A stretch of 62,453 bases of DNA, the filler included, from Hausera hauseri (lineage: Eukaryota): assembly GCA_046269625.1 (NCBI GenBank). It is 13 parts of 13 records of this genome, joined end to end, with 100 filler letters (N's around TTAATTAATTAA, not from the genome) between each part and the next. Parts side by side here need not be neighbours in the genome. Positions count along the whole stretch, not along the records: positions 49,179 to 53,829 come from JBJURY010489132.1; positions 53,930 to 58,298 come from JBJURY010613444.1; positions 58,399 to 62,453 come from JBJURY010790980.1; 10 more parts are not named here. One strand, written 5' to 3'. The notes under the pieces are model-generated. The model was not told the origin of the DNA. It saw only the letters and a list, made by a program, of their open reading frames with translations, and ran no database searches. The position numbers and the translations under genes were made by a program. Shown here piece by piece: positions 1-62,453 of this stretch (position 1 is its first letter; each line of letters begins with the position of its first letter).

Positions 1-104
1 CCCCAATCAGCAATCGGGTCCCAGCATTTCTCCCTCCTTTTGGGGTAATCGGGGTCTCAAAATCTTCTGCGGCATCCGTCCAATTTAATTCATTTTCTAT
101 TTTG

Positions 105-10620: not shown

Positions 10621-11107
10621 ATGTCTTTGGAAAACAATTCAGCAGATGACAGTCTCTCAAAAAAGCCACAGTACAGCGAATATTCGCTCAGAAATTTCAG
10701 GTTGTATAATGGATACAACATACATTATCTGCGCAGCGCTATTCAATTGCCATTGATGCAGACGGTAAAAATCAAACCGTCAAAATATGATCTATTGGTG
10801 AAGAAGATTAGCGACGATGATTTGAATACAATGGAAGACACACATAAAATGTTGATAATGACTTGGTGTTGACTAACGATATTCGAGATATATGGTCCAT
10901 TTTTGTCAATTCAAATATAACAGAAATTGTCAAGTCACGTAATGGAGAAACAGCAGCAGCAGTTTTGTAAATGGAAGAAGCTAAAGGCTGGCTAACATTG
11001 AAGCTGAAACGATACAAAGAACTGCACGGCATTAAATCACCAATATGGAAGCTAGAAAGGTTTAGTCTAATTTTACTTACTTTGTTTGTGATCTTAGTTT
11101 ATGATTA
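10621..11107 (+). pseudogene. Small intronless hypothetical gene convergent with pPolB, apparently disrupted
   Basis: TATATAAA about 45 bp upstream of the ATG; 83-aa ORF with coding-like continuation in a shifted frame; AATAAA near 11107. Confidence 0.35.
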
Positions 11108-11289
11108 ATAAATATAATGGGTTTATTTTTCATATTGTTTTTCGCATTAAGTTAAATATATAGATAAATAAAATAATAATAAAGCAAAAACCAAAACACT
11201 GAACAGTGTGCATTATTTGCAAAACACAGATTACAATGAATTGGCTGCAAATATTAGATAATTTTTCAGTATTGGGATTTCATTTCTTT

Positions 11290-27200: not shown

Positions 27201-27734
27201 TCTTGTCAGAATATTACTAAGTATGATATTTGGATTAACGTCCTCTTGTGGCGCAAAATATATTGGCTGATCATCCTCTTCGCGGATTTGAGCATAAATT
27301 AGCATTTCGGTTCTAGGCGGAATATTTTCATCGACGGGAATCCATACTTCTCCTTGCTTCCTTTCTTTCATTGTTATAATACCTTTCACTGGTCCGATTT
27401 CAAGTAATTTTGCGGTCTGTAACTTTATTGCTATATTAGGTAATTGTTTCAATATGTCGCAACCTAGCACTACATCGTCGGTTAATTGACCCATTAACTG
27501 GACTAAAGCACTCCATTTAAATTTTGGTTTGGATTCTTGCCCGAAGGCTCCTATGCTGCCTGGGTCTGATGATGACGCTGGCTGCAGTTGCTTTCGGAGT
27601 GTCGGTGGTACCGATTCTAATTTGATAAACGATTTCTCTGATCCGGTGTCTATTAATGCATAGACTTCCCGATCTTTGATAGTAACTTTTGTGAAGGGTC
27701 TTCCTTCCATGAATGATCTATAACAACTCGACAC
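24293..27734 (-). mobile_element. Gypsy/Metaviridae pro-pol (protease, RT, RNase H, integrase), frameshifted
   Basis: ALIDTGS; RFCINYRALN, LDLQSGY, PFGIK, YLDD; MDIVGPLP, YHPQCNGTVERMN, TGFTPF. Confidence 0.93.
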
Positions 27735-28284
27735 GTTCTTTGTTTGTTTAATCGAAAAAATTTTTTGTCCGTTTATCGTTATCTTTGGTGAAGAAATAAT
27801 ATTTTTGCTCAGCTGTTTCAGTTATTCGTTAGGGTATAAGTCGTTAACTGCCATGTTATTTGCATTGTTCTGATTAATGATTCTTATACTATTGGATTTT
27901 GGAACGATTTCACTCCTTGTGTTCCCCAGACTGTTGATTTTGTCTCTATATTTTAAGCTATTCTTGGTCAGTACAATATCCCGTGGTCATCTTCCTCTCG
28001 TCGTTGATTAGTAATTTGCATTTTCTTTAATACACCATATAGTTTTGTTCCTTCATAATGTTCTTCATAGCTGAAAGGTTTTTGAGAGAATGCTGATCTA
28101 TAAGACATCATAGATGTTTTGTCATAGTTCTTGTATATCGGAGCCGCTGGCGACATGATAGGTAAGGGTGATCTAATTACTGAATACATGTTGTGTCTAT
28201 TTTGTCTGAGGATCGCATCTCTTCCCTTAGGCTCGTCATTATCGGAGTTATTTGTTGGTGTCGTTGGTTTCTTAGCTTTGTGTT

Positions 28285-29104
28285 TCAATTGAAATATGGG
28301 TCTTGCTCATCGTTTATAATTATAGTAGCCGACATGGCGTTCACATCAGTTTTCCATCGATTGTCTTCGTATGTTTTAAGCATTTTGCCAAACGATGTGA
28401 TAATTGCGGTTAGGATCTTGCAAGAAAATCCTGTTAGCGTAAATATTTCATACCTATTTATAACCGCTTGAATTACCGCCTTTACTAGTTGTACAATGAA
28501 ATAAATTGCTAAAAATACAAATGCAGCTTGTCCAAAAATTAAAAATCTTCCCCATATTTTGCAAAGTATTTCTGTAGTTACCCATTGGTATTGATTTGCG
28601 CAAAGCAAGGATTCCCATTTTGCTTGGTATTGCGTATCATCTACTACTAATGCCATAGCCCGATTTAATTCGTGTGTCCGCTGTCGTGGAAAAGCGAGAA
28701 ATTGCCGAAAAGCTTCGATTTCTTTAGGCCTATAAATGCCTTTCTGAGATATATCCTGGAATTGTCGTCGGTAATTCCTTTTGCTAAATTAGTTCCAGTT
28801 AGTTTTTTAGGGATAATAATAACACCTCCATTGGGTAAGCTAAACCAATCCGTTTCGCCACGTCTAAACATTGGTTCACTCAAACTTGCTTTGCAATCCT
28901 TTAATATTGTAGGTTGTGTTGCGTTGTCTAGCAATACTTTAGTGAGAGGCATGGCTAACCGTGGGGTATTCTGGTAGATTATAGGGCGCTCCTGTATGCA
29001 TCGTTTTTCTTCAGCGTTAATTGGTACATCTATTTTTTCGCATTCATTTGTTAGTAAAACTTCGCCAGTAACCCGACCAAAAATTCCTACTCTCATGGGA
29101 ATAA
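28285..29104 (-). pseudogene. C-terminal half of an env-like glycoprotein resembling chuvirus/herpes-gB-related class III fusogens of invertebrate LTR elements
   Basis: GEV....C..I.V.....C.QE.PI.Y....P..K.L....T...C...PMF....W cysteine pattern; GIY..E....R.FL.FP across a frameshift; W..F..FG followed by a hydrophobic TM region. Confidence 0.7.
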
Positions 29105-36649: not shown

Positions 36650-37167
36650 TTGACGTCATTAAAAAGTTGTCGACATAAAACGTTGCCGATATTAAAAAGT
36701 TGCCAACATAAAAGTTAATGACATGAAAAAGTTACTAACATGAAAACGTTTACACGATTAAAAATTGCGGACATGAAAAAAGTTGCCAACGTGAAAGCTA
36801 CCGACATGAAAAAAGTTGCCAACATGAAAAACTGTCAACATGAAAAGAAATGGCACACATGAAAAATTACTGACAAGACAAAATGTCGAAATCAAAAAAA
36901 TAAACCAACACGAAAAATTGCTCATACAAAAAAATGCTGACATGAAAAATTATCGACATGAAAAAAGTTGCCTACGTAAAAGTTAACGACATTAAAAATT
37001 TACAATACCAAAAAAATGGCCGATATAAAATATTGGCCGATATGAATTAATGGCCGATATGAAAAGTTACTGACATGAAATCAATTACCGACATGAAAAA
37101 TTGTCGACTCGAAAAAAGTGGCCGACATGAAAATTTACCAACATCAAAACAATGGCCTACATGAAAA
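36650..37167 (+). repeat. Degenerate minisatellite with a ~20-21-bp unit (CCGACATGAAAAAAGTTG-like)
   Basis: Over 20 contiguous diverged units with no unique spacers. Confidence 0.85.
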
Positions 37168-37650
37168 TGATGATGATGATAAAACCAGATGACTAACATA
37201 AGAACCCTAATAACTTCCCTTCATTTCACAACAGTTCACCTAATGCTGATGACTAATATCCCTAACAACACTGTTATCTCGCCCTTCCTTACACTGCATG
37301 ATACATGATGCTGACTAATATCCCAACAACAGGACACATGATGATGATGAGGACTAACCTAACAACGCTGATAACTTCCCCTTCCTTAAACGGCAAGTTA
37401 AATAATGCTAATGACTAAAAACCCTAACAACAGGACACATGATGATGATGACTACCCTAAAAGTACTGTTAACTCCCCTTCCTTATACGACAAGTCAACT
37501 GATGATGACCAATATCCCTAATAACTTCCCCTTCGTTATACGACAGGTCACCTGATGCTGATGACTAATACCCCTCACAAGAGGACACATGATGATTATG
37601 ACTAACCTAACAACGTTGTTATCTTCCCCTTCCTTAAACGACATAACACG

Positions 37651-37682
<32 letters not shown>

Positions 37683-37800
37683 ATCCCTGACAATGCTGCT
37701 ATCCTCCACTTCCTTATATGCCAGCCTGGCACATGCTGATATCTAACAACATGAACCACGCTGGTATCTTCTCCTTCCTTATACAACAGGCACCAGCATA
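37168..37800 (+). repeat. Degenerate tandem repeat (GATGATGACTAA..CCCTAACAAC..CCCTTCCTTATACGAC)
   Basis: Motif blocks recur at roughly 60-110-bp spacing; an isolated copy lies near 38515-38560. Confidence 0.75.
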
Positions 37801-38669
37801 AAATTCGAGTGCAAATCGTTGTGACCCCATCACTGTGAGCCCGCCTAAACGGTAATCTGATACCGCGCTATCAAATTTTGGTGCCTAGCACTAACGTGGA
37901 CTGATCGTCTCTATGCTATTATTATTTTTACAGTAATTATTTTTGTCTGTCCATCTGTAACACAGCACTATACTTATTTGTACGTCACAGCCTATTAAAG
38001 AACAACACTGAAAACTTAAGTTTTTGGACAGGTTTGCCTTGGGGGCGTAACTGCCTAAGATATTAGTGTTTGTTATGAATCAACAGAAACGTTCGTGTCT
38101 ACACAGCCTCTAATACCAAAATACGTTCTCCTCCTGACACGTTAACATCTGAAGGCGTAGAAAGCTCCCCATCAGATTAGCTTATAACGGAACCCCTAGC
38201 TGAGGATGATGATGATGATGGTGCATGGCACTTGCCAATGATGATTAATTGCTTCGTTCCGATATCTAACGCACCACTGACGACCAGATTCCTAGACCAT
38301 AAGGAAGTACTCGAGCCACCACCTCCAGCTCAGATTCCATAAGAACGAAGAAGAAGAAGGACAGTACACCTAAATACACCTCACATTATATGCAATCACC
38401 TCTACCAGGACACCGGATGTGATGATGACTACAACCAAAGAAGAACCACCAGCCCTCTATTTGTGAAACAACACACTTAGTCATGGCAGTGTGGGAAGGT
38501 TTTAATAATTAATAGATGACCCCTTCCTTATACGATCGGGCACATGATGATGATGATACTACCCAAAGAAACAAGCCACAACCACCACCGGGAAACAAGG
38601 GCTAGTCACCTGATGAGCAAACCCACACCTCAACAAGCATGGGCAATACCTATGCCGGCAAAAGAAGCC

Positions 38670-38970
38670 CACCCCAACACCATGGACAAGACGAGACCCA
38701 CCCTTAACCCTTGGGAAACAAAGTCTCTTGAAGATCTAACCCACCCCGTCAATAAGCACTGGCGATATTTATGTGACCCATCCCCCAAAACCCATGGACA
38801 AGACAAGCCCACTCCCTACCCTTGGGTAACAATGTCACCTGAGGATCTAACCCACCCCTCAACAACCAGGGGGAAGACCTATGGGGACAACAAAAGACTC
38901 AACCTCCAGCACCAGTGGACAACACGAGACCACCCCCCCCCCCCGAGCACCCATGGACAAAATGGCAACA
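38670..38970 (+). repeat. C-rich degenerate repeats (CCATGGACAAGAC...GATCTAACCCACCCC)
   Basis: CCATGGACAA occurs three times and GATCTAACCCACCCC twice. Confidence 0.6.
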
Positions 38971-39816
38971 NNNNNNNNNNNNNNNNNNNNNNNNNNNNNN
39001 NNNNNNNNNNNNNNTTAATTAATTAANNNNNNNNNNNNNNNNNNNNNNNNNNNNNNNNNNNNNNNNNNNNTAAAAGCAGTTGAAAAAGAGTTTGAAATAA
39101 TGAAAAAATCAAGCCACTAAAATAACTGTTTAATGTTTTGTAAATAGTGTTTTCATTCAATGTCTCCATTCTGGACAGCATATGGACCAGTTATAAGTAT
39201 GAAATTGACTGTTGTTTTTTTTTAAATGGTTCAAATAATTTCTGAAATATAATCTTGGAAGCTGGATTACTTGTACCGACAATAGTGGAACCAACAGACA
39301 ACATTGGAAGCAACATTTTTAAGTCTATATGCATTATTTTATCAAATGATAATAAAATAGTGTCGCGCGTGAAGATCATTAAAAGTCGCGAAAAGATCAT
39401 TACAAGTCATTAAATTTGGTCTTGGAATTTCTGTAGATACCCTGGTCCTACATTCTGATGTTTATTTTTTTCTCATGTTTTATACATTATACTTTCCATC
39501 CCACTAAGTGTACAACCGTTTCAATGCATTCTATCCTGGATAAGTGTACATTCATCGTCAAAGAAATACACATTGTCATCTCATGTTTTCAGATTAGATA
39601 TCTGTATCCATGTCACGCTTCATCTGGATACACGTTTATTTACATACATAATCAGTGGGGATACACATTCATCATTGTCTTGTGGTAGATTCATTTTGTC
39701 AGAACATTGTCATGTGACTTGTTGATTCCATACAGTTGTAGAAGATTCAGTTGCTTAAATATGCTTTCCATGGTCATCTTTCATAAATTGTGATGTTGTT
39801 AATTTATACTTGACAG

Positions 39817-40152
39817 ATGATGAGCCCTATGAATATGATGCCACAGTTACCTCAAGTACAAATACAGCAGCAGCTGAAACAGCAACAAAAACTGCTGTCA
39901 ACCAGTGAGGTTATCAGTATTAGACTGCAGAGTGGAGCGAGTAAAAAGATGGATTACAGACGTCTGTCAAAAGGCACCAAGCAAACAAGATTCGGTGAAA
40001 ACTATACGACATATAACGAACTGGTTGGCTTGTTCAAAGAGTCGTTGAGTACGCAGATCGCTCGTAGGATGACACGACGTGAGAAAGTCTATCTGCAGTG
40101 TCCACAATGCAAAACGATACTGTCAACCGCTGAGAAACCAGTTAACGATGAG
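39817..40152 (+). CDS. Probable host exon, Q-rich with a CxxC motif, function unknown
   Basis: TTGACAG acceptor, open frame of 112 codons, GAG|GTGAGA donor. Confidence 0.45.
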
Positions 40153-40621
40153 GTGAGATTTGTCATTGCGTACTATTTGTCTGGCAACAACCTTTTTCAT
40201 TTACTTATTAACGATTTCTCTTCCCCATTTCTTATATGTTTTTGCTCTTTACATGTCCGCCGTTGGCATAACAACGTCACCCCTTTTAGGTTTAGCCTCC
40301 AGTTGTAGTTGAAACTTAATGTCCCGTTATTTAGAGATTCCCTATAATTGTTCACATGATCCACTAACAATTTCATCAGCCCTTAGCTTAAATATTCATC
40401 TGAGAGATTTTCCATAGACGTCTTCTGAATTCCTTTGAAACCGTGATTTACGGAATATATATTGATATACCCCTTGTTATGTCTAACCTCCATTTACGTA
40501 CTATTACTTTGGACAACAGTAATACCATCCCTACTGATGGTATCCAGTTGAGTGTCGATCGCCATAGAAACACGATTGAACAATTGAATCAACATACTTC
40601 TCTGACCGGACCCCCGGTGAA

Positions 40622-43600
40622 GTATCGGTCAACCCATATGTTCGGGTGCATGGCAGTGTGATTGACTTCCTGGCCTCCTGTCCTTCGTCAGTGGGTCCCA
40701 CACCATGGTCCATTAAATCGCCACACCACCCAATAGGGCCTATGACACCCCTTTCGTTTTACTTTTTATTAAATAATTCTCAAATACTGACGTACTATAT
40801 CACATAGCATATAGATGCACTGTACTTATACAAATATTTACAACATTTTACTGCTGTTTCAGACTTTTACTTAACTATTAATACTCTACCACTCGTTAAT
40901 GCCAATGTCCGAAATTATTTTCTCCTTCGACCCCATATCTTGTTATACATATACATATGCGCATACGTGGTGGAATGGACTCTTCCCTCACCAATGACAC
41001 CACTGACAAAATTACCTCTAAACCATTACATTTTGCTTTTCACCAGAAATGAACGACCGTAATCACGCCATCTACTTTCACCAGTTATACATCTTCCATC
41101 CCGCCAGCCAAACACACTTCTTCTCAGTGCATGGAATATTTTATCGATCATGAAAAATCCAGAATAACCTGGCTCAGCTTTCACAAACTTTGGCTGCAGT
41201 CTAACAACATTACTGATCCCTCAGCAAAAGTTCATAGTTTACTTTGCCTCTTCTCTTCACGACATTTTAGATATTTTCCAACAATCCGACGAGTACACAC
41301 ATCTCTATAACGCACTCTTAAAACTTACCGAACCATCTATGGATTCCATAATCCATAGATTCTTTAATGATAACGCCATTAGAACACAAAAGCTTTCTGA
41401 GTTTTTACGTACGTCGTTGGTTCACCTAAAAACGCTAGGTGTAACTAGGCAGCACAATTCAGACCTTCTGCGACGATATTTCTTAAACGCGTTGCCCATA
41501 CAAATTAGAACACTCATTACCGTTGTCGAGGAATCTACGGCGTTAGATAAATTTGCGGAATTGGCTTATAAAACACATGAAGTGCTGCAATTGAATTCCC
41601 AACCAATTCTATCAGCAGCTGTCGCAACAAGCGACAATCAACACCATACAACAACAGAGCAACAGTTGAGCCAATTACGCGCTGAAAATTTAGCACTACA
41701 ACAGACAAAAAATAACTTTAATAATAGGTTGAACGATCTTTCATTACCACGACGAAGTGTTCCTATTCATAATCATATTCGTTCTGTTTCCAGAAACAGG
41801 TCACCATCGCCTACACGATATTTTGTGTGCATTTATCATAGCAAATTTCACAATAAAGCTAATAAATGCCGTTTAGGGTGTAGATATTACATTCCAAATT
41901 TACATTTAGACAAAATCGTTTGCATCTGCCATGCGAAATTTGGATTCCGCGCTCAGAAATGTCTTTCAGGCTGCAACTATAAGAATAACGCTAACCATAC
42001 TACCGACAGACGTTCTATTTCCCCTACTAATAGTCAGCCGATCTCACCAATTCAAAAGAACTAATTTCGCCGCCATTACTCACGGCAGAGTCTGGCAAAG
42101 GCAACTTCTCTAATACTACCTGCTGACACACTTCTTTTGCAGTCTTTACACTAAAGGCATCGATAACCACACCAACAACTCAATCCATAGACTTCCTTAT
42201 CGACACAGGCGCCGCTGTTTCTTTGATACCACTCACTTTCCCTGTGCAAAATTCACCATTTAAAGATAATCGTTATTTACGGCTTCAGGATAACCGCCTG
42301 ACATTTCAGGTACATCTAAATTGTCGTTCACCTTACCAAACTTTCACTCCACATTTCATTGGACGTTTACCGCAGCTAACGTTCGCACAGCAATCCTAAG
42401 TTCGGATTTCTTATCGCACTATAATCTTTTAGTTGATTGCAAACAACAATGTCTGAGACGTAACACTACTGGATATCTTACCGAGCGAATAAATAGTATA
42501 TCCGATAAGGCGCAAACGATCTTCCCGCGGAAGCTTATACTCAAAAACCCTGTAAGTAAAACAAACCTCTTCAACAAGCATTTTTCATTTTGTAAATTTT
42601 TTTTAATAATAATGTCAATATTCAGTCGAGAGTTGGTTTTGACAACTACGATTGTGTTGGTTCAGTAAATTCATTAGACAAAATTACCTCTTCAAACACT
42701 ATTTTTAATACTACTATCCTACGTCAAATTCCCCTTGATTTCGATAACTCGCAAACATCACTCGTCACTGCACATATTGACTCAACACTATCACCATCAC
42801 CCAATTTCTCGCAATTGCTTGCAATACACACTTTATGCCGCCACTTAATCCAGAAAGACCGAACCTTCACATCTACAAACAGCACTTCTCATCACATCAT
42901 AATGCAACACCAAAGACCTATTCGTCAAAAGGAACGTCCATTGTCACCTCGTCATAGGCAAGCTGTCGAAGCGGAATTTCTAGACCTTGAACGCTCCGGC
43001 ATTGTGCGCAGACCTAAATCGCCGTGGTCTTCGCCTTTAAACGTTGTCCAAGAAAAGATGGATCCTTCCGACCATGCTGTGATTACCGTCAGCTAAACAC
43101 TTTAACTGTTAGGAATGCATACCTTTTACCATTAATTTAGGACATCCTGCACCGGCTCAATTCTACTACAGTATATTCAACCATAGACTTAGCCAATGCA
43201 TATCATCAAATTCCTGTACCACCCGAGGACATCGAAAAAACTGCCGTTAAAACACCTTTCGGCCTGTACGAATACATTTATATGCCTCTTGGTTTAAGCA
43301 ACGCTGAGCAGACTTTCCAACATCACATCAACTCCATCTTGTCGGATTTCGTTTTCGCGCATCCATATATAGACGGTATCTTGATTGCTTCGTCTTCAAC
43401 TAAACAGCATGAAATACACCTTCATTCTACTTTCCAACGACTCAGCCACCACAATTTATAAATTAATTTTACGAAATTTCACTTCTTCCAAAAGCGTATT
43501 AACTTTCTCGGAAACATCATTTCGGCAAATAGTTATTCTCCTCAGCCAGAACATGTTGAAGCTCTCAAAAGTATACAACTACCCCGAACAACAACAGAAA

Positions 43601-44011
43601 TGAGGAGCTTTTTGAAAACTTTGCACTTCATTAACAAGTATGTGCCGTACTGCTCTGAACTTACAGCACCATTTTCTCACTTAAGCGGCGGCAAAATACA
43701 TCTGCCAATCAAGTGGACACCTGACCTGGTTGATACGTTTGATAAGCTACGCGATGGAATTAGGACCGCCGACATTCATAAGACTAATCCTTACTACAGA
43801 CGCTTCAACCACCGCGGTAGGTTCTGTGCTTTATCAAATACATAAAGGAGACAATCAACCGCTAGAATTTTTCTCTCGTAAGCTAACATCCCATGAAACT
43901 AGATATTCAGCATTCGATCGAGAATTATTGGCCATAATTCTTGCTTTAAAGCATTTCTCCCACCTATTTATCACTCGCCGTTTTACCATACAGACCGATC
44001 ACAAGCCCTTG
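40622..44011 (+). mobile_element. CsRn1/Kabuki-like Gypsy internal region (gag, pro, RT, RNase H), degraded
   Basis: CIYHSKFHNKANKCRLGC and CICHAKFGFRAQKCLSGC; FLIDTGA; SPWSSPL; DLA.AYHQI; TTDAS..AVG, YSAFDRELLA, TDHKPL. Confidence 0.9.
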
Positions 44012-49178: not shown

Positions 49179-52100
49179 GCAGTGGTTGGAGCGTCTGTAG
49201 TAAGGATAAGTTCGGTATCAGACTTGGGAAAAGCGAGAATATCGACAGTTTTGATGCCTTCGCGTAGCTTATCAAATTTGTCAAACAATTCAGGTGTCCA
49301 CTGGATTGGTTGATGTTTTTTCCCTCCGCTTAGGTGTGCGAATGGTACTGTCAATTCGGAGCAATGGGACATATTTATGTAAAGTGTAGTGTACCGAGAA
49401 AACTGCGCATTTCAGTGGTTGTACGTGGCAACTGGATATTTTTAAATGCTTCGACTCGGTCTGGTCGGGGAGAATGACCGTCTAGTGAAATAACGTAGCC
49501 TAAAAAGTTAATGCGCTTTTTGAAGAAATAGCATTTGTCGAAATTGACTTGGAGATTATGGTGGTTAAGACGTTGGAATATTGAGCGAAGGTGTTCTTCG
49601 TGTTGCTTGGCCGAAGATGGAACGGCTAAAATTTCGTCGATATAAGGGTGTGCAAACGGGAAATCTGAAAGAATTGAATCAATGTGCCGCTGAAAAGTTT
49701 ATGCGGCATTCTGCAAACCGAATGGCATAAATAGGTATTCATAAAGACCAAAAGGATTAGTGACAGCAGTTTTTTCTGTCTTCGGGTGACACCGATATTG
49801 ATGGTATGCTTTAGCTAAATCAATGATCGAATAAATGGTGGTTGAGTTAAGACGATGCAAGATATCCTTGATGAGTGGTAAATGGTACGCATCCATGATA
49901 GTCAAGTTGTTCAGCTGTCGGTAGTCACTTCATGGTCTAAAAGTACCGCCCTTTTTGTATAACGTGTAAAGGTAATGACCAAGGAGATTTGGAACGGCGT
50001 ACTATGCCGGAACGTTCTAGTTCAAGAAATTCGGCTTCTACGGGCTGCCTATGACAAGGTGACAGAGGTCGTACCTTTTGGCATATTAGTCGTTGATGCT
50101 GTATAACTATATTTTGTAAAGTGCTATTTGTGGGAGTAAACGTACGATCTTTTTTAAGTACGCGTGGACATGATGTGTTGACGAATTGTTGTAAATTTGT
50201 AGGTAACTGTGATAGATTCGGTGAAAGTGGTGAAACGGCTTGAGTATTATCGGATGCAATTTGTGAGTTGTTTGGTGATGTGCTGTCAAGTGGTATTTGG
50301 TGTAAGATGGTAGAATTAAAAATAGTGTTGGATGAAGCGATTTCGTGAAATGAATTAACGTTGGTGGTAGTACCATAATTATCGACATCAAACCTCAATC
50401 GAATATCATTATTATTATTTGAAAATTTAGGAACTGAATTATTGTTATGAAAATTCGAATTATTCATTGATTTTTCCTAGATCGGCCTCTGAGTCCCGGT
50501 CGACTGCGCGGTAGTCGAAATGCTATTGGTATGCCCAAAAATGTCGCCAGTGGTTCCGTTCTTCAAACATCGTTGACTGCAGTCAACCAATAGATTATAG
50601 TGTTATAGAAAGTCGGATTCTAGAATTGCCGTCTGGACGTTAGCGATTGTGAACGTCCAGTGGAAATAGGAAGGAAAATTTGGTAAGGTGAAAGATAATT
50701 TAGCCATGCCAGAAATGTGCAGCGCTTGGCCTGAAGCAGTGTATAAGGGCTTAATTCGGAATGGAGAATTTTGTACACGAAAGGTTTGTGGTAATAAAGA
50801 AATCGCTGCACCTGTATCAATGAGGAAATCAACAGATTGTGTTGTAGGGGCGATGATTGCAGCCTTTATATTAAATAGAGCAAGAGACGTGTCGGCGTTT
50901 AGAAAGTGAAGTAGTGCCTTTGCCAGAGTTTTCCGTGACTTCTGGCGGCGAACATAGTTTTTCTGAAAGGGTGAACTAGGACGACTATTAGAAGGAAAGG
51001 TAGCACGTCCGTCGTTCGTATGTGATTTGAAAGTGCAGCCTAAAATTCATTTACAAGCTTGGTTTTTGAACCTTGCGTGGTAGATGCAAACAACGGTGTT
51101 CGAGGAAAAACTTTGGTTATAAAATTTGCACCTTAGGCAGCACTCTTGAGCACTAGTGTTAAGTCTGCTATGATAATAGCAGGTCGACAAACGCGCCGGC
51201 GATGGTGAGCAGTTTCTAGACGCAGAACAAACGCGGTCATCGACAAAATCCTTTCGGCGGGACAGATAAAGTTCGTTTAATTTATGATTAATAATGTTGA
51301 TTGTTGCGTGTAATGCAGTATTTTCAGCACGTAGCTGATTAAGCTCTTGTTCTATTAGTGTGTTATTGGTTTGAGTATCGTTAGTTACAACTGCTGCCAA
51401 AACAACTGGTGCGAAATTTAAGTGTAGAAGGTCGTGTGTCCTATCAGCTAAATCCGCCGATTTTTCAACAGTCGTGGAGTCCTCCACCAAGGTAAGTGGG
51501 GCCCGGATTTGGATAGGTAACGGCTTCAGGAAATAGTGGAGCAGTAGATCTGGATTGTGTTCTTTAGTGACGTCGAGGGTATGTAGATGTGCCAAAGTGC
51601 GTAAGAATTTTAATGGTCGTTGCGTGCCTATCACATTGTCGTGGAAGAAACGTTGTATGATTATGTCCATGGAGGGTTCCGTGATCTTAAGAACGGCGTT
51701 GAAAAGTTGGGAATATGGGCCAGGAAGTTCAAACATTTCGATGATGTTGTGAATTCGTGTTTTGATGTTATTATGGAGTAAGAAGAGATTTTGTGCATTG
51801 GTTAAAAAATCAGTAATATTATTTGTTTGTAGCCATAGTTGATGAAATTGCAACCACATTTTGCTGCAGCCTTGGTTGTCAATAAAGAATTCGGTGCAGT
51901 GAGAGAAAGGAGAGGAAGAGGTAATGGGTGAAAGGTTGCTAGCAGGGGTAGAAGTGGGTTTTTGAAGCAATATAACAGATTTTGGTTTCGTAGTGGTTTT
52001 ATCCGTTGTCTATGGTTGGCGATGAGTTCATACCACCACGGGTACGGAAGTGTATGTGGATACAAGTATGAGTTGAGAAAAATGGTAAATTTTCAGTGAG

Positions 52101-52362
52101 GGGTACTATAGATCCATTATGTGTAAGGTAGAAATCGGAAGAGTGGAATAAGATGGAAATGAAGTTACGAATTGTTGCAGTGTAAATGCAATGAAATGAG
52201 TGTGTGTTTATTATTTAGAAAAAAGAAGATGGATAAGAGATAGTGTGCTCGGGGGCGTGTTGTGGGGCTGAAGCTAAAGGCGCCATCTGACCAACTGGCG
52301 CAGGGTAGGCCGCCGGGACCTCAGCCTCGCCGCACCGGGTCCCAAATTTCGGGGTAACCGAT
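49179..52362 (-). mobile_element. Second CsRn1-like Gypsy internal region, degraded
   Basis: Gag homologous to 41339-42064 (CYYH..C..C and CIYH..C); FLIDTGA; IDLAKAYHQ, MPFGLQNA; LTTDA. Confidence 0.9.
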
Positions 52363-52599
52363 TTCTCTGCTTAAGGTATGATGAAGTGCACCGCTGACGG
52401 AGTAACAAGTGGATATGCATCGCATTCTATATGCAGCTTTTTTGCATTTACAACAACGACGGCTAGGCCATTTACATATACTATTGCCTTTGGTAATGAT
52501 GCAGCAACGCCAGGTGCGGTTCCATACGGAACAAACAGAGTGACCTCTTCGCCGGGTTTGAGCACAACGATCATACAATGTGTAGTTATTATACCCACG

Positions 52600-52705
52600 G
52601 ATATATTCTAAACCCTGATGAAATGTTTGCCACTTCTGTAGATAAATTGGAAGAAAGTCGTTAATCTCATTTCTATTTGTCTCTTGCTTTATTGACTCAA
52701 TGTGC
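52600..52705 (-). pseudogene. Cullin N-terminal repeat-like fragment
   Basis: HIESIKQE...DFLPIYLQKWQTFHQGLEYI resembles cullin repeat 1 (L..Y...W..Y..G..Y). Confidence 0.45.
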
Positions 52706-52712
52706 CGTTGAG

Positions 52713-53194
52713 TCAAGCGAAGTGTATCGGTATATAACGACTCGGCATAAACTTCACTTCTATCTTTTTTGCTGCATACCTTTCATTATCTACGCTAGGC
52801 GTACCCCAATATGCATCATAAATAATAGCCTTTGTCCTTAATGACATAAGTGCATATCCAATATTATTACCGTGATAATAAAAATTGACAATGTAGAAAT
52901 GAATATTACCTTGTCCACTCATCTGGCTATTTCATTGCTTCCCTGATCAGTTTCTCTTCCGATTAAGAAGTGTAAAAGTCCATGAGTATTCCTTAATACA
53001 GATGCTGCAAACTCCTGAGAAACACAAATTAAACTCTGGCCGTTTACGTCCACAATTTGATCATCAGAATGAACATTGTCGACATTTTCGAAATGAGTGG
53101 TTCGGAAATTGTATGAATCCGTTAAAAAGTCCTCGAAATCAGGCGCATTTGTAACTAATTTTTGTAGAAATACAAATGCGTGGAGCATTTTCAA
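52713..53194 (-). pseudogene. Possible MULE-transposase-like fragment following a Ser/Asn-rich ORF (53139-53672)
   Basis: FYIVNFYYHGNNIGYALMSLRTKAI resembles the MULE YAL...KT motif; the catalytic DGT motif is not seen. Confidence 0.35.
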
Positions 53195-54828
53195 TCATTT
53201 GATAAAAACTGAGATTAATATTAGACGGTTCATGCTGATCAATAAATTGTACATCATTGTTAAGATTTATAAACTCTGCTGAGTAATGACTGATAAATTG
53301 GTCATGTTTGTTTTCTGTATGGCTAATTGGATTCGATATTGTTTCATTTAACGTAGGTGTTGGTTTATCTACATCTGAATCAGAGTCACTTTCAACGTGT
53401 ATTAACATCAGTTGATCGTTGGAATGTATACCATCATAATTTTCAGATGGTACTTCAGCTGAAAGACGATTCGGTTTGGATGTCAATGAATCTGTGTTGT
53501 TAGATGGACTATTGTTTTCAGATTTTTCGTTACTATTGGATTTGGAAAGTGATGTCTGTTCAACATTTTTCGTATGTTGAATACTTAATCTCCGTACACG
53601 GAATTCTTCGGCTACTGGCTGAATAACGGAAATTTGGTTACTTAAAAATGGGGATGTAACTAACAATGACATTGAATTTTTTGAAATTTAAATTTGAGAC
53701 TTCTGACTGATCAGAATCGCTGTAAATGTACTTTTCATTTTTTAGCATATTTTCAACACCTGGTAATGACCAAGGCTTTTTCATCATCAATACTGAATTG
53801 TTCCAATTTCTGTCATAACTTTCAACATTNNNNNNNNNNNNNNNNNNNNNNNNNNNNNNNNNNNNNNNNNNNNTTAATTAATTAANNNNNNNNNNNNNNN
53901 NNNNNNNNNNNNNNNNNNNNNNNNNNNNNAGATGAATGATCGGAGAAGCGAAGGAAGAAAGTGAGTCAGACGGGTGTAGCACAGAACCATGGTGCGACAA
54001 ATAAAAATCGGAAGTGTGTAGGAAAGAGGATAGACATAGATGGTGTAAGCAATGTCCGTGTTACTAGTGTGTATGGTAAAAATGTTATTTTTAAAAAGAA
54101 AAAAGAAAGGGGTTGAAGAGTGATGCCAGAGGCGTGTTGTGGCGCACGGATAACGGACGCGTCCAGGTTTCTGACCAGATGATGTTCGGGCCGCATAGCC
54201 GAGGGGGCAGTCGCCAAAACCGATCTCTGATGGCCAATGTTTATCGCAGACTGATCGGATGCTCCGTATATGTCAATAAGTTTAGAGTCGTGGATGTTTA
54301 AGTAACCACACCTTATAATTCGAATAACCATAGAAAGAATCGGTATAACATGCATCATCATTAATAAAAGGAATATCGTCACAACTATCACCAATTCATA
54401 AGCGGCTTTCCGCTTCAAACGGTGCCACTGAATCCGAATAGAGATCGTCAGTATCAATGATCATAAAGGTGTCTTGTTGAATTTTCTCCAATTGCGAATC
54501 CGTCTTTTTCAACAATGCACAAACTCCATCCAAAATCGGTGATCGTTGCATTCCGGATTGTGGCAGTATAGGTAATGGGAAATAAGTATTCGATCGTGAA
54601 TGCGTCGGTGCTGGTGACGATGATATTTTTCGAAACACGGAATTTCATAACGTGTTATAGTATTCATCGGTAACCAAATTGGTTTCATCTTTGGAAAGTG
54701 TTTTTTTCTTGTTATAAAGTCCGGATACAAAGAGTGAGGCAACGGTATGGCTCATTGTTATCGGATGGTTTGATATGAAATCGTCGTAGGAACTATCGAG
54801 TATAATCATACGAGTACAAGAATGTGTA

Positions 54829-54926
54829 TGGTGCCCACAGCGGCCGGTGCCCTTTAGCCCATTTGGTCGGGCACGGCCGGATTTTTGTTAACGCCGCGTC
54901 GGGCCCATAGTCGGTCCCGATCTTCC
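54829..54926 (-). promoter_or_regulatory. Conserved GC-rich non-coding cassette, copy D
   Basis: Clearly homologous to 60734-60831 on a different segment. Confidence 0.6.
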
Positions 54927-55244
54927 GCCTCGACATTTTATGATTTTCACTCAAATAGACCTCAGAAACAAAGATGATGCCCGACATCAAACGAGCCTGT
55001 TTATATATGAGTCCGCTGATCGCGTTTTAAGCCACTGTGTTACTGGTTAATCAGTATATTTACGGGATCAGTTTAAATGAAATTACAATCAAAACCAAAA
55101 CCAATCTGGATTCTAGTCCGTTGTTTTGCAATGCTATTCGTCTTTATTCAGGGCCCCGTTGTTGTGTTTAGAATGGTTTACATGTTCATGTTGATTCATT
55201 TTCAATTGACATTTATTATATCTTATACCTTTTTGGCGGGAACA

Positions 55245-55300
55245 GATGTATACGTTCATGGTGGTTTGTCATCTATAGATATGTTGAATCAATTGGTTAT
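55245..55300 (+). pseudogene. PPP-family Ser/Thr phosphatase-like fragment
   Basis: VYVHGGLSSIDMLNQL compared with the PPP motif CVHGGLSPSI.TLDQI. Confidence 0.4.
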
Positions 55301-55498
55301 CAGATATTTGCATGGCGTCTGGGAACATGTTCCTGTTTACTCTCAAGTACAACTACAGTGTTCGTATAGTTATTCCATGACATTTACATAATTAGACGAA
55401 AATGTAATACTTTGAGTAGCGCTTTGCAATTCAAACATGTTTAAACTGGCTAACGTCACTTGGTTGTATAATATAATGAATATGCACTAGTTCTAATT

Positions 55499-56205
55499 AT
55501 GGTCTACAAAATTCACTATTACAATGGAATATTGTACTCATTCTTCGGTCGCTCCTTACAATCGGTATTTACCGAAGCACAACGATTTAATTCAAATTCC
55601 AACATTACTCTAAGCTTCATTAAAACACCTGAGACAACTAGACATTTGGGATTTTCGCACTTTTCATGGTCTGAAAATGATTCTCAGGTGTGGATTCACA
55701 GTGGTGCTAGGACAGTATCACTCGACATGTCTGACACACCGGTAGCCATTCTTACCAAAGTTACGGGTGCTACCACCTTTCTATGGCATACAATCAACGA
55801 CGGAAGTGGTCACACTGCTACAGTACCTGAAGCGCTTTTCACGACAGACATACCCGGTTTCTCACTTCTCGACTCACCGCTACCTCTGATGGATTGTACT
55901 GGCTACGCAATTCATTTAGAAATGCATGTTTATATCATTGTTTGGTTTCCGCACCTGTGTCTAATCATACTCCCATTGACTTTTTCCAGCACTGCGAACA
56001 GACGGACGAAGTTTCGTTCATTAGAGATCGGCCCTTAAAATTGTACTCACAATATCAACTTAATAATCACATAGCCAACAAGGAACAGAGCATTACAGTT
56101 GTTTGCAAAAACCCCGTAACAATGGCTATTAGCAACAGGCGACCGGACTTAGTAATTATTAGTGTACGCATTGGTATGAATTCTACTGAGCCTAGTAAGG
56201 TACCG
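55499..56205 (+). pseudogene. UBR4: Intronless internal fragment of a UBR4/pushover-like E3 ligase
   Basis: YWL..S...PIDFFQH....DEVSF....L.LY...Q...I......ISN......VRI.....K.P is collinear with the UBR4 PIDFFEH region as I recall it. Confidence 0.65.
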
Positions 56206-56277
56206 AATCATACTGAGGATAAAATTCTTAAATCAGCCATTATGAAATATGGCACAAATCAGTGGGACAGAGTGACC
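56206..56277 (+). pseudogene. CDC5L: CDC5/Cef1 Myb repeat-1 fragment fused in frame to the UBR4 fragment
   Basis: TEDKILKSAIMKYGTNQWDRV compared with CDC5L [21 protein letters not shown]. Confidence 0.75.
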
Positions 56278-56301
56278 AATGGAGAAACATTATATACAGG
56301 A

Positions 56302-58298
56302 AACTCGGCTACCCCGAAATTTGCGACCCACCGCGGCGAATCTGAAGCCCGGCTGCCCACCCTATGCCATTGGGTCGAACGGCACTTTTCGTTGCCGCCT
56401 CGAGACACGCCCACCGCCACACGACCTGTCCTCATTTCCTTTTTCTTCTTAAATAACAGACACATTTGCACAAATGCAGTAACACATTTAAAAACGGCGA
56501 CAATCTATAACTTAATCTTTACTCTTCTTTGCACAACAGACTTTTACCTCACACATTACGGCGCCACGGTACTTTTCGTTGGAAATCTGCAACCTTCTTC
56601 CATCTATATTCACCTTCACATTCACTTCCGCATCCGTGGTGGCATGGATTTACCATCCACTATAAATACAACGGACAAACCCACCAAACCACCGATCTCT
56701 ATTACTTACTTGCCAAACAAAGTGCTTCAAACACTCCGACACAGCACACACTCCCCACTCATTCATCCTGTACAGAATACTTCCTTTACCGCCAAAAACT
56801 CCACTCAAACATGGCTAAAACTACACAATTCTGGCTCCAATCACAAAACGTCGTCGACCCCTTATCCAAAGCCAACAGCCTGTTTTTCCATTTACCTGCT
56901 TCTATCAAAACTAAAATTACAAACATTATCGACATCCTTCAAGACACCGATACATATGCACAACTTTATAATGCCGTTCTTAAGCTCACTGAGCCGTCAA
57001 TCAACTCTATCATTCAAAGGTTCTTCAATGACAACGCCATGGGCCTACAGAAACTGTCTGAATTTTTGTGCACATCTTTGTCTCACCTCAATACCCTTGG
57101 CGTAACATTTGAGCATAGTCCAGAACTTCTTCGTCGCTACTTTTTAAACGCACTGCCCTTCAAATAAGAGCTTTTTTCACTCTGGTCGAGGACTCCATGG
57201 CATTGGAAAAGTTGGCCGAACTGGCGGACAAAGCCTATGAAGTGCTGCACTCACACACAGCACCAACTTTCTATGCGGCATTAACAACAAAGCACCAACA
57301 ATAAAGTGCAATGCTGCAGCAACAAATTTCGCAATTACGCACAGAAAGCGAAATTTTGCAAAAGACAATTAATAACATAAACGAGAAATTATATGAGTTA
57401 ACGCTGCCTCGACGAGGTCTTTCTAATGCTGCTTCCCCTAATGTATTTCATAAACGATAAAGACGGTCGCCTTCGCTCGCGCGGTCATCTATTTGCTACT
57501 ATCACAACAAATTTGTTAACAATGCTCAAAAATGCTGCATCGGTTGTAAATTTTACTCCCCTATTTTAATACAAGCAACATCGTCTGCATCTATCACGCA
57601 AAATTTTGAACAAAAGAACAAAAATGCCTACTTGTCTGTAATTACAACACGCACAATAAAATCAACACTATCAAACCCACATAAAATAGCAGGCCAAACT
57701 CTCCAGCTACAAAACACTCATTTTGCCTTTAGCATACACGGCAAGGTCTAGCAAAGACAACAACCTACAAAAAGATAGCCGACACATTTCTTTTGCTGTA
57801 TTTACGTTGGAAGCAGCAGTCGTCACTCCAACAAAGTAAAACATTAATTTTCTCATAGACACCGGCACAGCAATCCCTTTATTTCCACCAAAACAGCACA
57901 TCCAAAACAATTTTACTTTAAAAAAGCAACTGTTCACTGCGTCCGGTGAACCCTTACAAACTCTTGGTGTTATCAAATTAACTTTCACTCTTCCAAATTT
58001 CCAAAACACATTCACTTGAAATTTACAGTAGCCAAAGTACGCACACCTATATTGAGTTTAGACTTTCCGTCTCACTATAATTTACTGGTAGACTGCAAAC
58101 AATGTTCCTTAAAGAGCGGAAATAATTTTAATTAAATTAGCAGCATTTCGGTGACCACCCGGGTGATCGCTTCCAGCAAGTTAATACTGAAGAAAACGAC
58201 CTCCGATTTGACTTACTTTTATAACCATTTATTATATAAAAATTTTTTTACGGCAACAAATACGATATTGCCAACTGCGTGGCACCTATTACTGATAG
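56302..58298 (+). mobile_element. Third CsRn1-like Gypsy internal region (gag, pro), degraded
   Basis: LKLTEPS...IQRFFND..LLRRYFLNALP; CYYH and CIYH motifs; FLIDTGT. Confidence 0.88.
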
Positions 58299-58569
58299 NN
58301 NNNNNNNNNNNNNNNNNNNNNNNNNNNNNNNNNNNNNNNNNNTTAATTAATTAANNNNNNNNNNNNNNNNNNNNNNNNNNNNNNNNNNNNNNNNNNNNGA
58401 CACTGAACAAAATACGTTATTGAAATATAAAAAACAATATACATCGGATAATTGTCAATGATTGTCACAGTAACTAAACTGAACTGAACTGATTTGTATG
58501 AACCCATAGAGCACCGATTGTTTGGACGTACGTTTATTTCAGCCACCAATTTCCATACGCCCAACTCTT

Positions 58570-60510
58570 ATTTCGCCCCACCCACTTTCGCTTATCATCC
58601 TTATATGACAAAGCGACTTTCACACTGGTTATTGTGTACAGCTAGAACTCAATTGATCGGGTGATCGTTTGCGACACAACAGCCACTGATTGTCCTCCTT
58701 CTGCTGCTGCTGTTTCTTCATATATACGGCGATAATCACCGTGGTCGATTTCCATCTGTCTCAGCCGGACTCTTTTTGCCCGAATTTTCAGTCCACAGTA
58801 CGTCAGAAGACTGTATCACTTTTGGCGTAGGAATATCCGTTCCCGATACTGAACCATGCCTTCACTTTCATCCTTGAAGTAGCCGATTTCGTTAGTGACC
58901 GCGCTGCTGTACAGAGGATGATCCGGTGGATAGTTGGACGTGTCAAGTAATCCATCTGACTGCATTTGCTGCAGTAGCTGTTCACGATCAACTTTTTTCA
59001 GCCGCAGGAAAAAACTGTCTGTATCACCGGCAATTATACTAATGTCACAGTCATCAAACATTTGCCGGTAACGTGCCAAATATCGATACTGTAGCTTATA
59101 CATCCGCAACTTACTCAGATCCAATACCACTTATCCGATGTAACTTGTCCGGTCCACAACGACTTCTTCTCTATTTAACAGCACCTCAACCAATCCATCG
59201 GCAATACGTGACCAAATGCTTTTCACTATTGTATAGGCGTACATTGAGCCGCTTTTCAGATTCTCCACTGATTTTCCGTATAGGTAATTGTTTTTCAGCT
59301 TGTAGTAGTCCTTTTCGAACTTTGTGCAAGTTGCAACTCCTTTCTTCGGATTTCCATCTGTGTACGCCTTGAATATGGCAGCCCGAGAAAATCGGATTGC
59401 ACGACGCAGCCGTGTGACGCGAACACCGAGATGCATGTGAAACTGTAGCAAACTTCAATAAACCACGTAATTCAACTTCGCTTCATGCATCATAAGCAGT
59501 TTTTTCACTTTTGAGTCTAGCGGACATTGGTTAAATGGTGCAACCAGTAAATCGACTAAAACGTCATGCAGCTCATCTGGCGCCACGAGATCGACCTCCA
59601 TCAGGTATCCGACTGAGCCTGCCATGTCTGCTCGTGGTAGATTGATGATTTTTGTAAATTTCTTCATCCGCCAGTATTTCTGCGATTGTGTTGTACCGGA
59701 ACACGTTGATTGCCGTTGTCGGATTACGCCGTTCAAAAGCCGGAATGGATTTCAGTTTCATTGGCATCCAACTTTCATCGAAATCCAATTCGGAAAAATA
59801 TTTCTGATACTGTTTTGAACGAAATGCACTATGTCTGTCCACTTCGTCATATTTCAATACCGCCAGAATACTGTAACAAAAACGGTATTCATCGTTTGTA
59901 TATTTTACATTCACTACCGCCAGAGACTGCTTCAGAGCTAAAGGTGTCGGTATGAATGATCGTCCAGACAAATATATTATACTATTCTACTTTCTTATGA
60001 TAAAGCCAAGGGTGACAATCTTTACAATTCGCCATCCACTACAATTTTCTCTGCAGTTGGCGATTTTCTCCTCCAGCTTTTCGCCAATCTTAGCTATAAA
60101 ATCCTCGGCATATGGTACAACTCGACGTGACAGGTACCATTGCTTCCTGTCGCCTTGCATGTTTTCGAATTCTGCAAGTGCATAATACTGTACTTTGCAG
60201 TGGTGGTGTTGGAATTTGTCCACTTCAGATTCCAACCGGTTTCGTACAATGGCTGGAACATGTCTCAATTGCGTTGTTATTTTCTCTGACATGTTCACTT
60301 TTATATCCACGTACAATTTTTTCAGATTGTACTTGACAGTAATGCGTGGTTCCTCCATATATTGCTCCTGTTCCTGCTGCTTTTTCTGCTCATTCTGCTG
60401 TTTTTGATTTCTGTCGTTTTCGTCAAGTATTCGGCAAGGCTTTTTGATGCCTGACGTTTCCTACTTGTTGAAGGAATACTACTGCTGCTGCTGCTTTTTG
60501 ATCCGTCCAT
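58570..60510 (-). pseudogene. Third pPolB relic with a large internal deletion
   Basis: SGWRI, SFIPTP..VVNVK, FERRNP (N-terminal domain) joined near 59660 to GYLMEVDL, KLKNNYLYGKS, GDTDSF, GYFKDE. Confidence 0.88.
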
Positions 60511-60733
60511 TAATATATGTTTTCTCGACCGCTTAAACTGGTTTAAGTAATCATGGTTCTGATTATAAAATTGTTCATAGTTGATTTGACCATCAGCTAT
60601 AGTACAACTGGGACATACATAGGCCCATTTACTGTGACAGTTGTGGTGCTATAATATTGCTCCATTGCACTATGGCAACCACCAACGTCATCACTGTACT
60701 TGTACAGTACCGTGGGTATATGGGGCAATGCTG

Positions 60734-60831
60734 TGGTGCCCACAAAGGCCGGTGCACTTTGGCCCATTTGGTCGGACACGGCCGGGCGTCCGTTGCCGCC
60801 GCGTCGGATCCATAGTTTGGTCCGATCTTCC
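60734..60831 (-). promoter_or_regulatory. Conserved GC-rich non-coding cassette, copy C, between divergent pPolB and chromodomain genes
   Basis: Homologous to 54829-54926. Confidence 0.6.
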
Positions 60832-61077
60832 AACTTTTTGCTCCAAAAGTCAAACTCGAAAAGACGTTCCCGACTGCCATCCATCACAGATCACGTCCAC
60901 GCGACGACCAGCCAGTCAAGAAATGCTACTTCGCGCTCTCTCCGGTATTGCGACACGATAAACGCTCATATTCACAAACCAAACAAAATACCAATGTTAA
61001 CGATTTTTCAGTTCTAAATACGCCAAGTGCCCAAAAGCCGTTAGACGGCCTTTACAAAACTATTGTTTTATAATTGA

Positions 61078-61824
61078 ATGATGTCTCACGATCACTTTTC
61101 TATTTCGGACAATTTAAATTCTGACAAATTATATCCGATTGAGCAAGTTGTGGGTAAAAGACGACGAAAGGGTATTATTCAGTATAGAATCCGATGGAAA
61201 GGTTATCCGCCAAGTCAAGATACGTGGGAACTGGTTAGTTTAATTCGTGAAAGCTGTCTTACGTTAATCAAAGAATTTGATGACAAACGGAAATCGTTGG
61301 ATTTGCAAAGTGAATTTGATATGCATTCGAATGAAAGTGATAATTTAAACTGAAATTTGAATGATATGGTTTCAAAATCGAAAGAACATATTAACGAGCA
61401 GGACTTGTTACAGAAAAGCGATTCTGATATTGAAATAGTTATGGTGGAAACACTTATACAAATTAAAAAATCAGTAAATAGCCCTAAAGACACGACGGTA
61501 TCACACAATAAAGTCCCCAAATCTCGTTCCTTCGTTAATAAATCGAAGTCCGAAATTGGGTTGTTACCCCATCATCCCGTTCAAACGAGCAGTAATATCT
61601 CCTGTTCCAGTACGTCGTACATCAGTGACAAATCGAAAACCGAAACACCAATTACAAATCATTTAATCGAATTGAAAAATTCTGTGAAAAACTCTGTTTT
61701 ATATCATCAACCTAACACATTTGTAAATAATAACAGGTCAGATCCATCCAATTCATTGACGACAACCGACTCATCAACAACACCAAACAGTCGTGTGTCC
61801 GTCGACAAATCCGCGAGTTTTTAA
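61078..61824 (+). pseudogene. N-terminal chromodomain protein with a Ser/Asn-rich tail and one in-frame TGA at 61351
   Basis: YPIEQVVGKRRRKGIIQYRIRWKGYPPSQDTWE; ORF 61357-61824 continues in the same frame. Confidence 0.85.
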
Positions 61825-62329
61825 CGTTCTGGCCTTCCTTCATCTTCGGGATCTCTATCGTTTGTGAGTTTTGTCGCATTACGTTGGCGGAATCCACGTG
61901 TGCTTCTAGCCACTAGGTGTTGTGACATTGTAATTGTCTATATCATTGTGATATCTATGTGGCATTGCATGTTTGTTGTACCCTGCTCATTATTCCCTGT
62001 CTCCGTACGTTCTCAACCCGTGTGATCGCCAGGCGTCGACTGCTGAATTTGTTGGTGTATTTCTGTACTGTTTTATGTATTGAGGAGATATGTAATTGTA
62101 ATATAATACACTCTTTAATTTACACACACGTCTCAGTCATTCAAATCAGCGGTGCGCATGGGCATTCGCAGCTGGGTCAAGTGGAAAACCGGTTAAAGAG
62201 GCTAGTGGCACCTTTGCCATGACCACAAGCAGACTGACTATGGAGGCGATGGGAGTGACAAAAACGGTGGCTTGAAACACGGGAGCATAACTCATGTTTG
62301 CATTCTGTCTGACTCAATGAACATTCTTA

Positions 62330-62453
62330 AGAGGGTAAAGTCTGGCTGGACACGTCAGCAGTGGCTTGAATCACTGCAGAGATGTACAGTCCGCGGGGTC
62401 ACCTTCATACTCGTTCCAGGCCTTGCCGGCGTAGAGGGTAACGAGAGAGCGGA
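62330..62453 (-). mobile_element. Probable LINE ORF2 3' fragment
   Basis: Minus strand reads YAGKAWNE...CTSLQ*FKPLL. Confidence 0.35.

Follow-up and report, generated by a model that had tools for sequence, protein, structure and literature searches.

GC-rich cassettes beside Gypsy gag genes and a Polinton-type DNA polymerase gene in Hausera hauseri contigs: a case for two interleaved decayed families

Introduction

The stretch of DNA analysed here (the window; 62,453 nucleotides of Hausera hauseri, assembly GCA_046269625.1) carries short GC-rich cassettes located ahead of Gypsy-type gag genes and at a gene for a protein-primed DNA polymerase B (pPolB), and an earlier sequence-only reading had taken them for the common head of one composite Polinton-Gypsy element. 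Parts of the locus come close to described systems. Fusions of the ubiquitin-precursor type include polyubiquitin, the ribosomal fusions, SDE2 and the ubiquitin insertions of pestiviruses, and such precursors are cleaved after the di-glycine by deubiquitinases. Within Ty3/Gypsy, the CsRn1 clade (CsRn1, PwRn1 and AgCR) is marked, in the part of the source used here, by a CX2HX9CX3C Gag, a DTG protease and a tRNA-Trp primer site (PMC2582038). Insertions of homing endonucleases are noted in polinton pPolBs in the portion of a preprint drawn on here (bioRxiv 2024.03.18.585575), and passages of a third source describe Ngaro retrotransposons nested, with an insertion preference, in EMALE virophages bounded by terminal inverted repeats (TIRs; PMC8547959).

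Measured against those parts of the sources, the Gypsy copies of the window resemble the CsRn1 clade in the CX2HX9CX3C Gag, the DTG protease, the reverse transcriptase (RT), a DAS RNase H and a motif near to the tRNA-Trp site. However, their heads carry an extra domain of ~73 amino acids (aa) with an R-x-R-G-G ending before Gag, the primer-site-like motif starts with CGG, and copy A is without a 5' long terminal repeat (LTR); the clade is assigned from motifs. The pPolB, a DNA_pol_B_2 protein with an inserted endonuclease VII domain, is in line with the insertions noted in polintons. Unlike Polinton/Maverick elements, it is present as decayed fragments only, and no integrase, ATPase, protease, capsid or TIR was seen on its contigs of 4-5 kb. 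The Ngaro/EMALE pair is the nearest precedent for mixing, as retrotransposons and pPolB elements are interleaved in one genome in both cases, but nesting is shown there and not here, and the retroelement here is a Gypsy. The extra domain is like the ubiquitin-type fusions in being N-terminal, of ~75 aa, with a di-glycine directly before the next protein. In contrast to them, it is far from ubiquitin outside the tail, its partner is a retrotransposon Gag, and its fold and cleavage are predicted.

On balance, our analysis favours the view that two abundant decayed families, one CsRn1-type Gypsy and one Polinton-type, are interleaved in repeat-rich leftover contigs, with the second kind of cassette (copies C and D) likely separate from the Gypsy heads and likely located beside them by chance.

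Results

Composition of the stretch

The window consists of 13 contigs of 4.0-5.4 kb each, joined by artificial linkers, and in such a concatenated assembly neighbours across linkers do not amount to linkage. All cassette copies reported earlier were found where they had been placed. The segment proposed to hold them (52250-60831) covers three contigs with N-linkers in between and is not one piece: contig 49179-53829 carries copy B, 53930-58298 carries D and A, and 58399-62453 carries C. Copy E is located on contig 39071-44011, and a 12-mer thought to be shared with D on contig 10449-14480. D and A do stand on one contig, as had been said, and theirs is the only real adjacency among the cassettes.

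53830-53929, no strand: artificial contig linker (N44, 12-base stop linker, N44), from the contig layout
58299-58398, no strand: artificial contig linker, from the contig layout

Gypsy heads A, B, E and H

56302-56424, plus strand: head A, a non-coding GC-rich Gypsy leader without codon bias, opening with a degenerate 12-mer like the tRNA-Trp primer site (9/12 at 56306)
56644-58298, plus strand: Gypsy A gag (weak DUF7041 match, CHCC motif) and protease, broken and cut by the contig end
52242-52364, minus strand: head B, a leader with a primer-site-like 12-mer (10/12 at 52360)
49179-52031, minus strand: Gypsy B gag, protease and RT, cut by the contig end
40622-40741, plus strand: head E, a diverged leader (primer-site match 8/12) with an ATG at 40742 directly behind it
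40975-44011, plus strand: Gypsy E gag (two CHCC motifs), protease, RT and RNase H, cut by the contig end
53930-54227, minus strand: head H, a leader (~54227-54120) followed by the same domain as in the other heads, cut by the contig end before the tail (nhmmer E 3.5e-8)

Copies A, B, E and H appear to be the 5' ends of one CsRn1-type Gypsy family. A/B and B/E, like C/D, are real families (p=0.001 each, 1,000 dinucleotide shuffles), with identities of 73% for A-B, 50% for A-E, 55% for B-E and 80% for C-D. The diverged copy at 40622-40740 is upheld as a Gypsy head by its pairing with B; as a relative of C/D it is not, since E has no match to them. H, 600 bp past D, is a fourth Gypsy head which the sequence-only reading missed. 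The observed order is that of a Gypsy element, a non-coding leader of ~120 nt being followed by the R-x-R-G-G domain, the Gag Met, CHCC, protease, RT and RNase H. The CHCC motif (CX2HX9CX3C) is located at 57494 in A, 51181 in B, and 41828 and 41921 in E, and all three copies combine it with a DTG protease; RVT_1 is present in B and E and RNase H in E, and the best PDB match is the Ty3 RT. None of 1,180 candidate relatives of gag B was confirmed.

The leader would open with a worn tRNA-Trp primer-binding site. Using the pattern given in section 6 of PMC2582038, the part drawn on here, the heads match the 12-mer of the CsRn1 clade at 10 (B), 9 (A), 8 (E) and 7 (H) of 12 positions, against per-position backgrounds of 7e-5, 5e-4 and 3e-3 for 10, 9 and 8 matches. 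Weighing against this assignment, the motif begins with CGG and not TGG in all three of A, B and E, the first base deviates in H as well, and C and D also match the pattern on the plus strand, at 9 and 8 of 12.

Copy A is without a 5' LTR, because a fragment of a host gene ends 25 bp before its head and the depth upstream is lower (51-191 against 642). Depth here and below is that of one public run (X1, contigs) compared along two stretches, and is no copy number.

56197-56277, plus strand: CDC5L Myb fragment (E 2.8e-6), 25 bp short of head A

Copy B probably lacks a 5' LTR as well; these statements concern A and B. The upstream flanks of A, B and E have nothing in common. The earlier description of the Gypsy genes as LTR-less is thus borne out at the 5' end of A and probably of B, whereas the 3' end is cut by contig ends in every copy, inside or before pol. 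In both A and B, a CAG precedes the conserved head by six to seven bases (56296-56305 and 52361-52370) and could be the remnant of an LTR end or a splice acceptor.

A di-glycine domain ahead of Gag

56425-56643, plus strand: ~73-aa domain of copy A ending in R-I-R-G-G, in frame with Gag, likely ubiquitin-like
52032-52251, minus strand: R-x-R-G-G domain of copy B, frameshifted
40742-40974, plus strand: R-x-R-G-G domain of copy E, with one stop and one frameshift

The gag Met lies 244, 219 and 235 bp beyond the cassette end in the three heads, which agrees with the distance of about 220-245 bp proposed for the start codon; however, the intervening DNA is coding, the gag Met follows a coding domain and these Mets are internal. 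In copy A the frame is open through the domain into Gag, in copy E the ATG at 40742 stands at the cassette edge, and in A, B, E and C the reading frames start at the 3' edge of the cassette. Mismatches between the A and B domains fall 25/18/38 on the three codon positions (p=0.008). For the A/B cassettes themselves the corresponding numbers are 10/12/11, and a coding role was rejected. In three of three complete heads the domain closes with hydrophobic residues in alternation, then R-x-R-G-G, and the Gag Met follows immediately. The window has three occurrences of the tail pattern, one ahead of each complete gag, and 100 shuffles gave none.

Because of its length of ~73 aa and its R-x-R-G-G tail, the domain resembles a ubiquitin-like precursor. 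The better of two models has a helix followed by three strands in the C-terminal two thirds, and 43 of the 47 Foldseek rows listed were ubiquitin or ubiquitin-like chains. We regard the domain as probably ubiquitin-like. Several results count against this assignment. A third-position excess was not significant in A-E, A-H or B-H, the domain has no Pfam ubiquitin match, and the PDB profile matched polyubiquitin through the tail only (6.6 bits per repeat), a match that was gone once the Met was dropped and the alignment rebuilt. The two models have a pLDDT (predicted local distance difference test) of 48.5 and 59.7 with a helical N-terminus, the best Foldseek E is 2.9 while ubiquitin is over-represented in the PDB, and the ubiquitin-like call was significant in no search. 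VIA-align was uninformative (best Z 2.6), and an Atlas search with domain and Gag gave no usable match.

By analogy with ubiquitin precursors, the domain may fold as a beta-grasp, and host deubiquitinases are predicted to clip it after the double glycine, which would free Gag with a defined N-terminus. In listings from full-text searches of the open-access literature we found no precedent for a ubiquitin-like-Gag retrotransposon fusion, and none for the lack of a 5' LTR as in copy A; these two are the features of most note here.

The C/D repeat and the start of pPolB

54829-54927, minus strand: copy D of a ~99-bp high-abundance repeat, by depth
60734-60832, minus strand: copy C of the ~99-bp repeat, TGG...CCA end to end, abutting the pPolB start
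58537-60730, minus strand: decayed pPolB without its middle part, matching residues 4-368 and 868-1235 of its relative P0034
61081-61353, plus strand: low-copy chromodomain open reading frame (ORF) on the outer side of C (E 1.7e-11; depth 30-77)

Decayed pPolB is present on three of the 13 contigs (5544-14480 and 58399-60730), with a depth of up to ~89,000 against 10 for unique DNA, and the family is unusually abundant. PF03175 is found on two of these contigs and on P0034, an intact relative of 1,235 aa which shares 64-70% identity with the copies found at 11-13 kb and 58-60 kb. The nearest relatives are intact proteins of 1,100-1,400 aa from metagenome assemblies. Integrase, ATPase, protease and capsid gave no Pfam match on the pPolB contigs, in ORFs of at least 100 aa on both strands and in the read-through frames scanned, although contigs of this length are too short to exclude such genes. 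None of 3, 81 and 17 pattern matches in scans of the pPolB loci was confirmed, and Atlas leads, under 0.9, came for the N-terminus of P0034 only.

On the contig of copy C the alignment with P0034 begins with residue 4 at 60730, 4 bp past C; residues ~369-867 have no counterpart there. A pPolB start 220-245 bp after C, as proposed earlier, is contradicted by this, the suggested ATG near 60510 (224 bp past C) being internal. No in-frame ATG is present at the homologous start. The position of C at this start suggests that it is a leader or terminus. The other two pPolB copies cannot test the cassette because their 5' ends are truncated. The 12-mer reported upstream of the second pPolB copy adds nothing, as the adjoining pPolB is truncated at residue ~411 of a relative and has no start, and as a shared signal the 12-mer was rejected, the probability of at least one chance match being 0.40.

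13759-13770, minus strand: 12-mer shared with D, a chance match (P=0.40)

C spans 99 bp from TGG to CCA and D ends with CG, and neither of the two copies has a target-site duplication. The depth across C is 8,882 (partly C itself), 36,704 and 267, and across D it is 430, 16,283 and 141. At the left boundary of D, loose ends in 111 contigs agree at 0.39, which means varied flanks. Excess depth and varied flanks suggest that the repeat also spreads alone.

54228-54828, minus strand: ~600 bp separating D from H, moderately repeated (depth 382-851) and without a protein relative

The cluster of ORFs which D had been said to precede ends in head H; the frame in between is indeed without a relative, none of 245 candidates being confirmed.

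A second short repeat (61029-61119, depth 64,536) is located between C and the chromodomain ORF and has no other copy in the window. The region 8620-10348, upstream of the first pPolB fragment, has no Pfam match but resembles a DNA-transposase remnant by a sequence motif.

Similarity between the two kinds of cassette

Beyond the pairs A/B and C/D, the proposal of common anchors in all four copies finds borderline support. A/B and C/D are collinear with 50-56% identity over 93-94 columns. Single pairs gave p values from 0.001 to 0.46 in dinucleotide shuffles, and the joint score of A+B against C+D gave p=0.0003 under the most lenient of three scoring schemes, 0.006-0.009 under another and 0.06-0.07 under the strictest. 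C (117) and D (105) both score above all 124 other GC-rich window/strand controls, of which the best reaches 99. Among non-members, C ranks first with the Gypsy-head profiles, at E=7.6 with the A/B/E profile and at E=2 with the A/B/E/H profile; the C/D profile matches no Gypsy head in the window, and E and H are without a match to C/D. The cassette pairing had been picked by eye among 13 GC-rich islands, and the p values are uncorrected for this choice. On these comparisons the relationship is suggestive and not established. That the cross-identity equals that of the true homologues A-E (50%) weighs against keeping the two kinds apart, and 'separate' may be wrong.

A region at 21990 which scored next to C/D was set aside, as it has only 32-42% identity. 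None of five Rfam matches at E<=5 overlaps any cassette, no tRNA was detected in them, and a descriptor for ribozymes like that of hepatitis delta virus matched none of 10 strands; we reject the cassettes as ribozymes or tRNAs. Folds of the single cassettes are no better than those of shuffles (z -1.08 to +0.92), and no fold common to them was found (covariation term +0.76). Cassette patterns matched nothing in the viral or metagenome contigs searched.

Depth along the D-A contig

55244-55535, no strand: stretch between D and A with single-copy depth (10.1-10.9)

No contig of the window holds both pPolB and Gypsy. All 740 tblastn matches obtained with 120 pPolB relatives fall on three contigs, each of them free of Gypsy heads; the D-A contig has none of these matches. 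Along this contig the depth falls from 16,283 in D to 10.1-10.9 at 55244-55535, where one 611-bp contig (depth 9.7, 3 differences) was found, and rises again to 642-903 at head A and ~10,000 in gag; D is ~1,600 times deeper than the unique DNA that separates it from A. As the depth varies more than 1,000-fold along D-A, we reject it as a repeated unit; had it moved as a whole, its depth would not vary to this extent. On the contig of C, similarly, the pPolB body has a depth of 3,800-89,000 and the chromodomain ORF one of 30-77. With random placement and three heads (H left aside), one of the two C/D copies would come to lie at most 1.5 kb upstream of a Gypsy head with P=0.14, and divergently so with P=0.07. 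The claim that D and A, back to back, link a pPolB-type cassette to a Gypsy is not sustained by these values. A caution for our interpretation is that X1 is possibly the same sample as the window.

Host-gene fragments

52910-53074, minus strand: neurabin-type PDZ fragment upstream of B (E 3.7e-9)
52492-52776, minus strand: cullin-like fragment (E 4.8e-5, under the cut-off, and unmatched in the PDB), its end ~130 bp away from head B on the upstream side
55107-55232, plus strand: Piezo-like exon fragment, multi-copy (E 1e-5, below cut-off; bin depth 241)

The presence of captured host fragments, noted earlier, was corroborated: the CDC5L and neurabin-type PDZ fragments are real, and the Piezo and cullin fragments are weaker, below the Pfam cut-off. 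The Piezo, neurabin and CDC5L fragments point to an animal genome. The fragment upstream of E had no match. The scraps come in pairs (PDZ and cullin, 52492-53074; Piezo and CDC5L, 55107-56277), on the same strand as heads B and A, respectively, and just upstream of them; the Piezo and CDC5L scraps on the D-A contig are multi-copy.

Discussion

With two interleaved families as the preferred reading, the D-A contig would consist of the Gypsy ends H and A, pointing away from each other, and of the repeat and host-gene scraps between them, and C/D would be a leader or terminal segment of abundant Polinton-type elements which has also spread as a short unit. A single leader module, a promoter or RNA signal shared by descent, which heads the Gypsy frame in A/B/E/H and was picked up, in the form of C/D, by pPolB elements and other cargo with no composite involved, would account for the collinear identity, for the lenient joint p of 0.0003, for the defeat of 124 of 124 GC-rich controls by both C and D, for the rank of C among non-members of the Gypsy-head profiles, and for frames which, in A, B, E and C, begin where the cassette ends. 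However, the p value rises to 0.06-0.07 under the strictest scoring, the eye could choose among ~100 island pairings, C/D is matched by neither E nor H, the profile E-values are 2-8 and a common fold is missing, and we consider this explanation unlikely, if a serious one. The idea of a common promoter or cis module behind the cassettes gains support from the corrected starts in so far as both kinds may be 5' leaders; on their common origin the comparisons decide neither way. It is distinctly improbable, in our estimate, that C/D represents a solo LTR or miniature-element unit of unrelated origin which landed at, or recombined beside, the pPolB start: the TGG...CCA form of C over 99 bp, the sharp boundaries with a depth in D far above both flanks, and the homologous pPolB start without an in-frame ATG are consistent with it, but target-site duplications are absent from both copies, D ends with CG, and a junction arising at random would seldom come as close as 4 bp to the point where pPolB homology begins.

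The composite put forward in the sequence-only reading, in which a common cassette would unite an LTR-less gag-pol with pPolB, a chromodomain gene and host fragments, could draw on the presence of D, H and A on one contig, on host fragments that flank A and B (two of them multi-copy on the D-A contig), on the borderline cassette similarity and on the absence of a 5' LTR from copy A. Against it stand the separate contigs of the two gene types (none of the 740 pPolB matches is on a Gypsy contig), the depth range of more than 1,000-fold, the chance of adjacency of 0.07-0.14, and the lack of integrase, ATPase, protease and capsid matches in the frames scanned on the pPolB contigs, and we regard such an element as very improbable. 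A bolder view would see an LTR-less lineage derived from CsRn1, with a modified primer site, a ubiquitin-like-Gag precursor and a 5' leader shared with Polinton-type elements; a single mobile leader would then serve a retrotransposon and a DNA transposon alike as their driver. Taken as a whole, this view appears quite improbable to us. If the cleavable ubiquitin-like leader were real, the retrotransposon could employ host deubiquitinases to set the N-terminus, stability or timing of its capsid protein. If the family were without LTRs, it would need a route of priming and integration other than that of known Gypsy elements, and no precedent for an LTR-less Gypsy of such a kind was found in listings from the open-access literature.

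Other elements in the stretch

On the minus strand, 24293-29104 holds a different Gypsy pol (protease, RT and integrase) together with a remnant of a chuvirus-type fusion glycoprotein (PF24664, E 1.9e-21), which is placed upstream of pol and not downstream. Positions 1-5443 carry two BEL/Pao pol copies in an inverted fusion with arms 74-92% alike. TRAF-like MATH and RING ORFs are present at 22636-23835, and degenerate arrays of short tandem repeats at 36655-38960.

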